Assembly: GCA_016207475.1 (NCBI GenBank) | Contig: JACQPM010000136.1 | Span: 1 to 30,077, forward strand | From: Methanobacteriota archaeon | Lineage (GTDB): Archaea > Hydrothermarchaeota > Hydrothermarchaeia > Hydrothermarchaeales > JACQPM01 | Length of the DNA: 30,077 nt | Direction of reading: 5' to 3' | Shown here: in pieces, positions 2,446 to 4,373 of the stretch | Numbering within the stretch: the stretch's first letter is position 1 | How the letters are laid out: the number at the start of each line of letters is the position of its first letter | Translations under genes and position numbers: made by a program | Notes under the pieces: generated by a model | Databases searched by the model: none | Seen by the model: only the letters and a program-made list of their open reading frames with translations | Told to the model about the DNA's origin: nothing

Positions 2446-2542
2446 GGGGCCATAGGGTAGCCTGGTCCATCCTTCGAGCTTTGGGACAGCCCGGAAGGGT
2501 GCGGAAGAGCTTGAGACCCCGGTTCAAATCCGGGTGGCCCCA
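2446..2542 (+). tRNA. tRNA-Pro(TGG) with 22-nt intron at position 37/38 (2486-2507)
   Basis: Acceptor GGGGCCA/TGGCCCC, anticodon stem CGAGC/GCTTG, anticodon TGG at 2482-2484, T arm CCCGG-TTCAAAT-CCGGG; the intron forms a bulge-helix-bulge (TTTG pairs with CGGA) capped by a CCC-GGAA-GGG hairpin. Confidence 0.95.
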
Positions 2543-2544
2543 TT

Positions 2545-2606
2545 TGTCAGCACTTCGCAGCCAAGCCCTTCACGGTGGATGGCTCGAATGGCTGCTCGTG
2601 CCGACA
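2545..2606. repeat. Structured imperfect hairpin, copy 1 of a two-copy motif
   Basis: TGTCAGCAC..GTGCCGACA outer stem, GCAGCCA..TGGCTGC middle stem, AGCC..GGCT inner stem; starts 2 nt after the tRNA-Pro end. Confidence 0.75.
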
Positions 2607-2672
2607 CGCCTCCCAGCACGGTCTAGTGCCCGAGAGAGATAATTTTAAGTGTTTACACGTGAAGCAGATTAA

Positions 2673-3023
2673 ATGAAAATGGGCTTTAGAAGGAAAACTG
2701 CTTGCGAATCATTTGGGAAATTTTTAAAGGGCGATAGAGGCCAGGGGTTGGTTGATGTTTTAGTTCTGGTGGGGGGTGCCATCCTAGTAGGGGTGGTAGT
2801 CTTCACTCTATATGGGAGCATGGTCAAAACGACGGCCAAGGGTCTGAACGCTAGCGTAGCGGAGGTGACGAGTGCCATCGACAACGCCGCCTCGCTCACC
2901 GACAGTGTGACTTTATGCCATATACCGCCTGGCAATCCCGGTAACGCTCGCACAACGACGGTGGAGCAGAGCGAGGTTTCCGCCCATTTGGGGCACGGGG
3001 ACTATCTTGGTCCCTGTACGTAG
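2673..3023 (+). CDS. Archaeal type IV pilin-like protein with class III signal peptide and C-terminal Cys/His mini-domain
   Basis: Basic leader, then RG/QGLVD cleavage-type motif and a hydrophobic helix; C-terminus TLCHIPPGNPGN...AHLGHGDYLGPC. Confidence 0.7.
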   Translation: MKMGFRRKTACESFGKFLKGDRGQGLVDVLVLVGGAILVGVVVFTLYGSMVKTTAKGLNASVAEVTSAIDNAASLTDSVTLCHIPPGNPGNARTTTVEQSEVSAHLGHGDYLGPCT

Positions 3024-3027
3024 GCAG

Positions 3028-3073
3028 CTCAGCGCTTCGCAGGACCCCCACAGGTCGTCCTGCTTGCGCCGAG
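3028..3073. repeat. Structured imperfect hairpin, copy 2 of the motif at 2545-2606
   Basis: CTCAGCGC..GCGCCGAG outer stem, GCAGGAC..GTCCTGC inner stem; left arm 13/14 and right arm 11/13 identical to copy 1; starts 4 nt after the pilin stop. Confidence 0.75.
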
Positions 3074-3140
3074 ACCCTTCTGAACCGCTCCTCAGGCTTC
3101 GGCTCATGCTCGCCTTCGTCGCGGCTCGACCCCTTCTCCC

Positions 3141-3153
3141 GATAGGTATTTAA
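3141..3153 (+). promoter_or_regulatory. BRE + TATA upstream of the eL41-like gene and tRNA-Leu
   Basis: GATAGG-TATTTAAA, followed by SD AGGAGG at 3185-3190. Confidence 0.6.
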
Positions 3154-3197: not shown

Positions 3198-3311
3198 TTG
3201 GCTGGTAAACATTCATCCAGGAAATGGAAGAAGGCTGGCAAGTGCCGGTGGAAGACCAGGAAGAAGAAGCTGAAGGAGAGGAGGAGGAAGGCCAAGATCA
3301 GGACCAGGTAG
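3198..3311 (+). CDS. Ribosomal protein eL41 (eS32)-like, 37 aa: MAGKHSSRKWKKAGKCRWKTRKKKLKERRRKAKIRTR
   Basis: TTG start 7 nt after AGGAGG; very Lys/Arg-rich, with SSRKWKK-G--RWK-RKK pattern as in archaeal eL41 homologues; too short for the ORF track. Confidence 0.75.
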   Translation: MAGKHSSRKWKKAGKCRWKTRKKKLKERRRKAKIRTR

Positions 3312-3326
3312 CCCTCACTCACGGTT

Positions 3327-3441
3327 GCGGGGGTGCCCGAGATTGGCCAAAGGGGACAGGCTTAGGATGCCCGGGCGAGAACCCGGGCAGGGGAGACCTG
3401 TTAGCTCAGTGCTTGCGAGGGTTCGAATCCCTTCCCCCGCA
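3327..3441 (+). tRNA. tRNA-Leu(TAG) with 29-nt intron at position 37/38 (3367-3395)
   Basis: Acceptor GCGGGGG/CCCCCGC, anticodon stem ACAGG/CCTGT, TAG at 3363-3365, long variable arm, T loop TTCGAAT; intron contains the 8-bp stem TGCCCGGG/CCCGGGCA. Confidence 0.95.
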
Positions 3442-3498
3442 CTTGCCCATATCCCCTGATGGAACGACAATTATAAATGGAATAGTGACGGAGGTTAG

Positions 3499-3890: not shown

Positions 3891-4373
3891 ATGGAGGAGG
3901 AGGCGAAGGCCTACGCTGAGAAGGTCAAGGGGATGGAAGGGCTGCAGAAAGCCGGGAGGGAGATCGACGAGAGCTTCCTCAACCGCCTGAGGGGGGACCT
4001 GGAAGGGCGGGCAAGGTCCATCGTCTTCGGTGAGTTGGGCGAGGGCAAGACCTACCGCATCAATATAATAGTCCCGGGGGCTGGCCAGTACGACGAGAAG
4101 AATCCCGATTTCAAGGCCTTCGTGGTAGTCCATGAGGGGAGGCTGGTGGACTCCGGCATCGGGACGGTGAGGCCGGAGGATGCTAAGGTGACGGTGAGAG
4201 ACATGGATACCTTTGCGAAGGTCGCCATCGGACCAGGATATGCCTATTTGGGTGAGCGGGGAATCTCCCTGGGCGAGGCCTACAGGGAGGGATTGATAGA
4301 GGTGGACAGCGGAATCGTGAAGAACGCCCTCTTCAAGGCAGCTGAGCTGGTCAGGAAGTATCTGGAGAAGTGA
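3891..4373 (+). CDS. Hypothetical protein, possibly an SCP2-like lipid-binding fold; may be the 3' part of the broken gene upstream
   Basis: Frame is open from 3762 with no earlier ATG; the C-terminal pattern (DAKVTV..TF..V..LGEAYREGLIEV) resembles SCP2-like domains by eye only. Confidence 0.5.
   Translation: MEEEAKAYAEKVKGMEGLQKAGREIDESFLNRLRGDLEGRARSIVFGELGEGKTYRINIIVPGAGQYDEKNPDFKAFVVVHEGRLVDSGIGTVRPEDAKVTVRDMDTFAKVAIGPGYAYLGERGISLGEAYREGLIEVDSGIVKNALFKAAELVRKYLEK

Follow-up and report, generated by a model that had tools for sequence, protein, structure and literature searches.

REPs (repetitive extragenic palindromes) are, together with their nucleases, regarded as a speciality of bacteria. 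A REP carries a GTAG or CGTC tetranucleotide at one end, and the gene for its cognate RAYT, a Y1 HUH protein, is usually flanked by REPs. Integron attC sites possess the inverse cores R'' (RYYYAAC) and R' (GTTRRRY) and occur in arrays with promoterless open reading frames (ORFs), intI and attI, while PATEs insert 3' of a fixed tetra- or pentanucleotide and have different left-end and right-end hairpins. Bacterial REPs lie behind ORFs, often at the stop codon, form tandems and doublets with occasional in-frame copies, and belong to lineage-specific families (PMC3733652). In Archaea, only IS200-type Y1 proteins have been seen and none of the RAYT classes (PMC6006769). A hairpin terminator abuts the tRNA gene leuX of Escherichia coli and is later removed by RNase P or PNPase, as cited in PMC12439589. 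The present work concerns a stretch of 30,077 nucleotides from a member of the Hydrothermarchaeota (contig JACQPM010000136.1 of assembly GCA_016207475.1), referred to below as the window. Two imperfect hairpins in this stretch, copy 1 behind a tRNA-Pro(GGG) gene and copy 2 behind a gene for a pilin-like protein, belong to a previously undescribed family of repeats. With a probability of about 0.6, we regard this family as a lineage-specific, modular set of imperfect palindromes found in a few uncultivated Hydrothermarchaeota, similar to REPs and bacterial interspersed mosaic elements (BIMEs) and probably transcribed as a 3'-end hairpin.

The family shares with REPs, BIMEs and REPINs the form of dispersed GC-rich imperfect palindromes, tens per genome, with a conserved mismatch and a conserved tail on one side. 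It is likewise lineage-specific, is found as singletons, tandems and head-to-head doublets within mosaics, includes occasional in-frame copies and, where genes are unidirectional or convergent, tends to lie immediately after an ORF, in many cases abutting the stop codon. It differs in its archaeal host, in the absence of a RAYT/Y1 gene accompanying the copies and of a GTAG or CGTC tag, in its longer units (44-112 nt) with a two-storey stem and exchangeable tops, and in a marked association with tRNA 3' ends, where the spacing is always 2 nt and the orientation always sense. Like integron attC sites, the units combine a basal and a second stem, separated by an unpaired spacer, with a terminal structure of very variable length and with strand asymmetry; unlike them, the copies are dispersed and have no RYYYAAC/GTTRRRY cores, cassette array, attI or intI. 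A stable sense hairpin a few nucleotides from the tRNA 3' end recalls the Rho-independent terminators that abut bacterial tRNAs (cited in PMC12439589); the archaeal repeats depart from these in having ACCC in place of a U-tract and in conserving sequence, beyond structure, at many loci. In contrast to PATEs, which are miniature inverted-repeat transposable elements (MITEs) derived from IS200/IS605, the archaeal repeats have variable 5' flanks (among others ATT, ATC, ATA and stop codons), and a unit contains only one hairpin. A family that has the habits of REPs in an archaeal phylum, but no RAYT, would point to another mechanism of mobilisation or maintenance, or to a host function that retains the repeats.

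Anatomy and structural constraint of the hairpins

An earlier note on this DNA, made by a model from the letters and their ORFs, had placed hairpins at 2545-2606 and 3028-3073, and both were recovered there. Copy 1 extends from T2545 to A2606, with arms TCAGCACTTCGCAG (2547-2560) and CTGCTCGTGCCGA (2592-2604). Its base, termed the foot (2545-2553/2598-2606), contains an A2549.C2602 mismatch and is followed by an internal loop of TTC (2554-2556) opposite TC (2596-2597), a middle stem (2557-2563/2589-2595) and an apical loop of approximately 25 nt with conserved ends, AAGCC..TTC and CGAAT; the 3' tail is CGCC (2607-2610). Copy 2, which spans 3027-3074, has arms at 3029-3042 and 3060-3072, a basal pair C3028-G3073, a foot at 3028-3035/3066-3073 with an A3031.C3070 mismatch, the internal loop TTC (3036-3038)/TT (3064-3065), a middle stem GCAGGAC/GTCCTGC and the tail CCCT. 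The copies are in direct orientation and have in common the arms TCAGC(A/G)CTTCGCAG and CTGCT(C/T)G(T/C)GCCGA, exact matches to either of which were absent elsewhere in the window, where only matches with three mismatches, at chance level, were obtained. Two compensatory differences reported in the note are real, namely A-T to G-C within the stem (2552/2599 versus 3034/3067) and G-C to C-G at its base (2546/2605 versus 3028/3073).

Folding was compared with dinucleotide shuffles on both strands, and both copies folded far better than the shuffles on either strand (z of -3.1 to -4.4). The minus strand yielded the lower energies (-34.3 versus -29.9 kcal/mol for copy 1 and -32.0 versus -24.3 kcal/mol for copy 2), as the note had proposed, because the plus-strand A.C mismatch becomes G.U there. 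Its statement that only the terminal loop varies was imprecise: the copies come from separate subfamilies, one of 58 nt (long) and one of 44 nt (short), whose tops differ.

Further copies were sought in the assembly from which the window derives (G000; 1.04 Mb in 147 contigs, 58% complete, 61% GC). A strict pattern yielded 10 copies and a fuzzy search 18, and a covariance model (R1) built on those 18 yielded 19. The analysis also covered 41 related genomes and the 35 genomes of the order, five of which are carriers: G000, its sister species G001 (96% complete), G004 and G012 of another family (f4), and G021 of a third family (f6). The scan of genome and relatives that the note had proposed produced both more copies and covariation.

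Short and long forms have the same foot, a stem of 9-10 bp with the sequence T(G/C)TCAGCAC/GTGCCGA(C/G)A and A.C at the fifth pair, together with the TTC/TC internal loop and, confined to the 3' side, a conserved C-N-C tail. Above the foot stand a covarying middle stem of 6-8 bp and then an exchangeable top. The two main forms in G000 are a short one of 44-46 nt, to which copy 2 belongs, and the long one of copy 1, with a 7-bp middle stem and an apical loop whose ends, AAGCYTTTC ... CGAAT, are conserved and whose centre is free. Relatives add classes of 68, 93 and 112 nt; in the 93-nt class, the loop of the long form encloses a further small hairpin.

Structural constraint was assessed on 89 distinct copies, with 500 shuffles and slid controls. 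Paired cells amounted to 87%, compared with 78.7% in the shuffles, none of which reached 87%, and double-sided changes occupied 65 cells where 14 were expected. Pairing collapsed to 20-41% in the slid controls. The six middle-stem pairs were Watson-Crick in 487 of 534 instances (91%) and comprised at least 14 stem variants, including GCAGCC, GTAGGC, GCAATC, GCCAGC, ACCAGC, GGCATC and GGAAGA. The foot was almost invariant across the three families, with the A.C mismatch retained in 85 of the 87 scorable copies, and no AAC/GTT pair occurred in the foot of any of the 89, in agreement with the note's observation that canonical attC ends are absent. Comparison with Rfam 15 on either strand, at gathering and permissive thresholds, returned only tRNA above threshold, the next best match scoring 15.7 against a cut-off of 73.5 bits. 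Covarying, structured, dispersed and without an Rfam match, the hairpins bear out the suggestion of a new repeat or RNA family.

A third hairpin module, designated the C module, follows copy 2. Its foot, CTGAACCGC/GCGGCTCGA, has nine pairs with A.C at the fifth and a CCCC tail; the geometry is that of the main foot and the sequence differs. It folds weakly on the plus strand and with a z of -2.6 on the minus strand. The module also follows a main hairpin at five other loci of G000 (C23, C120, C135, C144 and C41), at one of them with an inverted loop. These six copies adjoining main hairpins were the ones used, a loose regular expression that gave 547 mostly spurious matches having been abandoned. 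A small module, (G/A)TCCCGCTCRCTNCGYTNGCGG, recurs after the main hairpin behind tRNA-Thr(CGT) and tRNA-Ser(GGA) in G000 (C41:~4050-4112, C131:~770-826 and C64:2792-2830). A variant with the same foot and a different top (TCGGTCTCGGTGCGCTTCGCTACCTCGACC) sits behind tRNA-Ala(GGC), tRNA-Arg(CCG) and other tRNAs (G000 C144:1-25; G001 L082:147-199; G021 L221 and L228).

Known RNA motifs were also considered. A kink-turn joins a canonical to a non-canonical stem through a 3-nt bulge, next to which come tandem sheared G.A pairs. A minus-strand kink-turn that would bind L7Ae was rejected, as the internal loop, read from the sequence, is 2x3 (GA opposite GAA) and lacks the 3-nt bulge. Bulge-helix-bulge, H/ACA and C/D readings of the loop and its flanks were judged by eye to misfit.

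Placement behind genes and turnover among relatives

The 19 copies of G000 are distributed over at least 13 contigs, and every one has the orientation of the gene or tRNA upstream of it. Fifteen are situated in tRNA trailers, where 11 start 3-8 nt beyond the tRNA, one follows another module and three are second in a tandem. The other four stand behind three protein genes, 2, 5 and 21 nt past the stop codon, one of them in tandem. A hairpin is present behind 12-13 of the 33 tRNA genes detected in this assembly. Across five genomes and three families, all 36 tRNA-adjacent copies are sense-oriented and separated from the discriminator base by a fixed 2 unpaired nt, and tandem copies keep a constant gap of 4-5 nt behind the preceding stem. 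The upstream genes are ordinary, encoding eS28, eL24, eL39, a YidC-like insertase, a PilB-like ATPase, DeoC and an HdrA-like protein, among others.

Among the 51 copies of G004 and G012, 33 are behind a co-directional gene or tRNA, which together with the 19 of 19 in G000 corresponds to the dispersed, mosaic, behind-ORF habit of REPs; 17 of the 33 lie within 15 nt of the 3' end. Forward copies outnumber inverted ones by 29 to 9 in unidirectional contexts (p = 0.0017), and none of the nine inverted copies is within 15 nt of the 3' end of the upstream gene. These two genomes contain, across many unrelated loci (L251-L290), a mosaic intergenic block comprising a forward hairpin, an optional mini-hairpin (CACTTGC..GCAAGTG), the element GGGTCAAGACACGACGA, a Shine-Dalgarno-like GAGGTGGATTGAAA and the ATG of the next gene. 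The third element looks like a decayed inverted foot. Since the 'inverted' copies sit exactly between the third and fourth elements, the arrangement is a head-to-head doublet, as in REPINs and BIMEs. Exact GGATTGAAA sites numbered 46 in 172 kb of G004 and G012 loci, with 36 of them within 200 nt of a hairpin. One copy in G004 (L259:1033-1092; G004:C64) falls within a 393-aa ORF, where it forms, in frame and with no stop, part of the linker that connects a CbiX to a CbiC domain. An ORF between two inverted copies in G012 has a start resembling DUF59/MIP18-type proteins, judged by eye from the translation, and is not transposase-like.

Copy numbers were 19 in G000, 22-23 in G001, 25-34 in G004, 34-38 in G012 and 3-4, plus variant feet, in G021. 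No copy was found in G006, a genome of the same genus as G021 that is 96% complete and whose orthologous tRNAs have T-run trailers. The remaining 29 genomes of the order gave none or single weak matches. Bacterial contigs yielded single pattern matches at about the number expected by chance, counted by pattern only and without re-scoring by the model, and 11 pattern matches on viral contigs included none that the covariance model confirmed; no viral or plasmid copies were found. Metagenome contigs from JGI hold true copies and offered no new gene context.

At orthologous loci of G000 and G001, where flanks are 94-100% identical, a hairpin with the same foot was always kept and the modules differ. 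Behind tRNA-Pro(CGG), one of the two genomes has a long and a short hairpin and the other a short hairpin and a C module. Behind tRNA-Val(GAC), one has a short hairpin and a C module with an inverted loop, the other a long hairpin and a C module; the inverted loop is that of G000, with the sister species as reference. A constant foot variant beneath differing tops suggests that exchange takes place inside the foot. Between G004 and G012 (flanks 81-88% identical), five of five comparable loci retain the hairpin, with identical feet, diverged loops and tops that are sometimes swapped or carry a nested insert. A long-type copy follows tRNA-Ser(GGA) in all four genomes. Within genera, none of the orthologous loci compared was empty, apart from the distant pair G021/G006.

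Probably transcribed 3'-end hairpins, possible mobile DNA and rival accounts

The almost constant sense orientation directly behind a transcription unit indicates that the hairpins are probably co-transcribed within the tRNA trailer or 3' untranslated region. The RNA hairpin might then act as a 3'-end structure, either as a barrier to 3'-5' exonucleases or as a mark for processing or termination, and a conserved protein may read the foot. Spread and reshuffling could proceed by recombination or gene conversion between identical feet, or through some trans-acting enzyme, and would involve no known transposase of the family's own. A 209-nt contig from a sediment metatranscriptome library, in which the 3' half of tRNA-Pro(CGG) is joined to a long and then a short hairpin, fits co-transcription of tRNA and hairpins. 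Three features speak for a transcribed 3'-end hairpin recognised through its foot, namely sense orientation, constant spacing and persistence at orthologous loci. Four speak for dynamics at the level of DNA: the missing wobble signal, inverted copies that are intact, inverted loops and a patchy distribution. By analogy with REPs, both can be true at once.

A number of observations weigh against a transcribed, REP-like family of this kind. G.U (G.T) pairs in the variable stem were as rare as A.C (8 versus 6); as G.U is no commoner than A.C there is no signal of an RNA strand, which suits a constraint on DNA. The sense-strand RNA bears the destabilising A.C mismatch and the antisense strand folds better. 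No intrinsic-terminator U-tract follows the hairpin, the 3' flank being (C/G)ACCC(A/C/T). The inverted copies of G004 and G012 (9-10) are as intact as the forward ones. The 209-nt contig derives from a relative, has low depth and may be carried-over DNA, and genes in the relatives were called with a crude self-trained ORF caller based on codon usage. A GTAG or CGTC tag is absent, the one-sided tail reading C-N-C on the top and G-N-G on the other strand, and no duplicated target site was observed. Y1_Tnp (PF01797) showed no correlation with the repeats across the 41 genomes, was missing from four of the five carriers (G000, G001, G012 and G021) and in the fifth, G004, is represented by a single gene with no model match within 1.5 kb on either side. 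Phage_integrase (PF00589), searched in the five carriers, was not found in G000 or G012 and nowhere lies near a copy, being more than 13 kb from any copy in G004. The carriers are metagenome-assembled genomes (MAGs), and these enzyme absences are read with the 58% completeness of G000 in mind. The PF00589 and PF01797 searches gave no tyrosine recombinase or HUH nuclease of the kind that the note had suggested looking for near other copies. The last 30 nt of tRNAs and the 260 nt behind them had a longest common word of 5-7 nt, with or without a hairpin; a duplicated tRNA 3' end is therefore absent behind the hairpins, and their outer arms are alike at every tRNA and are not copies of the adjoining tRNA.

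The same observations were weighed for accounts that place the hairpins wholly in RNA or wholly in mobile DNA. A dedicated and non-mobile RNA signal, with the foot recognised by a protein or ribonucleoprotein as a processing or termination mark on pre-tRNAs and some mRNAs, is rather unlikely. It would explain the fixed spacing and sense orientation at 36 tRNAs in three families, the invariant foot beneath a covarying middle stem, the retention of the hairpin at orthologous loci despite top swaps and the promoter-like box that follows each block in the window, and the tRNA-abutting bacterial terminator hairpins removed by RNase P or PNPase (cited in PMC12439589) provide a precedent. In a possible variant, the hairpin would be a minihelix-like substrate, and its cleavage would fix the tRNA 3' trailer. 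The repetitiveness of the family would, on the RNA-signal account, arise only from shared function and gene conversion. Such a signal is difficult to reconcile with its patchiness within one genus (present in G021, absent from G006), with the intact inverted copies and the in-frame copy, with the lack of a G.U excess or with the fraction of G000 tRNAs that carry a copy. A selfish single-stranded DNA hairpin, either a true REP/REPIN or an IS200/IS605-type MITE mobilised in trans by an HUH or other nuclease, we hold to be decidedly unlikely. The nuclease would read the bottom strand, with its GGGT tag, G.T wobble and purine-rich GA/GAA loop, and positions behind genes would reflect tolerated or targeted insertion, for example just 3' of an existing stem-loop. 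The mismatch, internal loop and one-sided tail are conserved asymmetries typical of strand-specific single-stranded DNA sites, and variable-stem mismatches without strand bias, loop inversions, nested inserts, head-to-head doublets, the in-frame copy, the patchy phyletic distribution and the constant 4-5 nt behind a previous stem all suit such an element. Counting against it are the distribution of PF01797, including its absence from the 96% complete G001 and the lack of flanking hairpins at the G004 gene, the lack of known archaeal RAYT classes (PMC6006769), the lack of empty sites among orthologous loci compared within genera, the uniform sense orientation at tRNAs and the lack of viral or plasmid copies.

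Two further accounts came from the note itself. The hairpins were interpreted there as single-stranded DNA recombination sites, attC-like or HUH-type, delimiting a one-gene pilin cassette inserted beside a tRNA. The foot, internal loop, second stem and variable terminal structure do recall attC, the pilin-like ORF has a codon-usage score (5.7) below that of every other gene called in the window's first 6 kb, and in G001 a gene 94% identical to it follows a different tRNA, tRNA-Arg(TCG), with a long and a short hairpin. This reading was nevertheless rejected and is scarcely credible: R'/R'' core sites are absent, the copies form no arrays and are dispersed behind tRNAs and housekeeping genes, no Y1/HUH or integrase gene accompanies them, and the tRNA alone explains copy 1. 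The gene family is moreover widespread without hairpins, with homologues aligning over residues 12-80 in 29 of the 41 relatives and hairpins in about five. The note's other suggestion, an antisense small RNA transcribed from the minus strand, has in its favour the better folding energy there (by 4-8 kcal/mol, and also in the alifold consensus) and a purine-rich loop, but is very improbable. At 36 loci, such a transcript would continue after 2 nt into the antisense strand of the tRNA gene, and at all of these the copy is in sense orientation at fixed spacing; no conserved promoter-like box was found on that side, neither strand matched Rfam, and the internal loop misfits a kink-turn.

On a further tentative and, on present evidence, improbable reading, the foot could be the recognition site of an enzyme unrelated to Y1 transposases, acting on RNA or on DNA; in either version this would be the first such system in Archaea. 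On RNA, an endonuclease or an activity of the RNase P/tRNase Z type may use the hairpin as a punctuation mark for tRNA and mRNA 3' ends in a lineage whose genes may lack oligo-U terminators. On DNA, an enzyme may insert new units 2-5 nt downstream of a stem-loop already present, for instance the acceptor arm of a tRNA or an earlier copy.

The strict tRNA-trailer position, invariant foot and orthologous retention make the hairpin a candidate signal for 3'-end formation or processing. Archaeal signals for termination and tRNA 3' maturation besides oligo-U are poorly known, and hairpins are not known to serve in archaeal termination.

The tRNA-Pro(GGG) locus and its neighbours

At the window locus (Table 1), copy 1 is the trailer hairpin of tRNA-Pro(GGG), its stem starting 2 nt beyond the discriminator base, and copy 2 with the C module is the 3' block of the pilin-like gene, the TCAGC of copy 2 beginning 5 nt beyond the stop codon (3021-3023); no cassette is formed. 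The hairpin blocks occupy the space from the end of a gene to the next TATA-like box. These boxes are located at 2638-2648 and at 3141-3152, the latter (GATAGGTATTTA) upstream of the 37-aa ORF.

Table 1. Hairpins, tRNA genes and short ORFs identified around the repeat locus of the window
Feature	Position	Strand	Basis
tRNA-Pro(GGG) gene, 97 nt	2446..2542	+	ARAGORN; Rfam RF00005, 44.8 bits; discriminator base 2542
Hairpin copy 1, long type (58 nt)	2545..2610	+	Covariance model, 64.4 bits; fold; long-type alignment and alifold
116-aa ORF, pilin-like by N-terminus only	2673..3023	+	ORF call
Hairpin copy 2, short type (44 nt)	3027..3078	+	Covariance model, 60.1 bits; fold
Third hairpin module (C module)	3080..3133	+	Flank comparison; fold
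37-aa Lys/Arg-rich ORF	3198..3311	+	eL41-like by composition; unconfirmed by any model
tRNA-Leu(TAG) gene, 29-nt intron	3327..3442	+	ARAGORN with introns allowed

The description of the bracketed gene as a pilin held only for the look of its N-terminus, which by eye has a basic start followed by a hydrophobic helix. Searches of the 116-aa ORF against Pfam and NCBIfam returned nothing at E < 0.01, the best match being DUF7266 (E = 0.029, residues 35-78). The gene is an ordinary resident gene and lies outside the repeat.

In G001, tRNA-Pro(GGG) and its hairpin are found in a different context from that of the window, and the contig with the pilin-like gene (L204) ends inside that gene at residue 73. 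The different upstream tRNA in the sister species implies that the hairpins are points of either rearrangement or assembly error. Logan contigs break inside the repeat (at 2574/2576 and 2607/2616), and one DNA contig covers 2616-3441 exactly. The join of tRNA-Pro(GGG), hairpin and pilin-like gene may therefore be a repeat-mediated assembly chimera. Repeats of this type fragment MAG assemblies and can produce or conceal rearrangements, the present junction being a case in point, and they deceptively resemble cassette boundaries.

The tRNA-Pro(GGG) gene probably contains an intron, because its length exceeds that of a standard tRNA. The tRNA-Leu(TAG) gene was overlooked by the default tRNA scan and at the Rfam gathering score, and has no foot hairpin behind it. 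The 37-aa ORF had no family match in Pfam or NCBIfam. On the minus strand, 2195-2380 may encode a small membrane protein, in an ORF that is divergent from tRNA-Pro and upstream of it; since the ORF originally called (2195-2527) overlaps the tRNA, an ATG near 2371 is probably the true start. Elsewhere in G000, four tRNA-Leu genes (C19:4942-, C64:2971-, C94:8006- and C132:3043-) have a different trailer, in which a T-rich hairpin AAGCCTTTTTATGTAAAAAGGCTT precedes GAGCCAAAAACCCGCA; these hairpins make up a second tRNA-trailer family, terminator-like in appearance.

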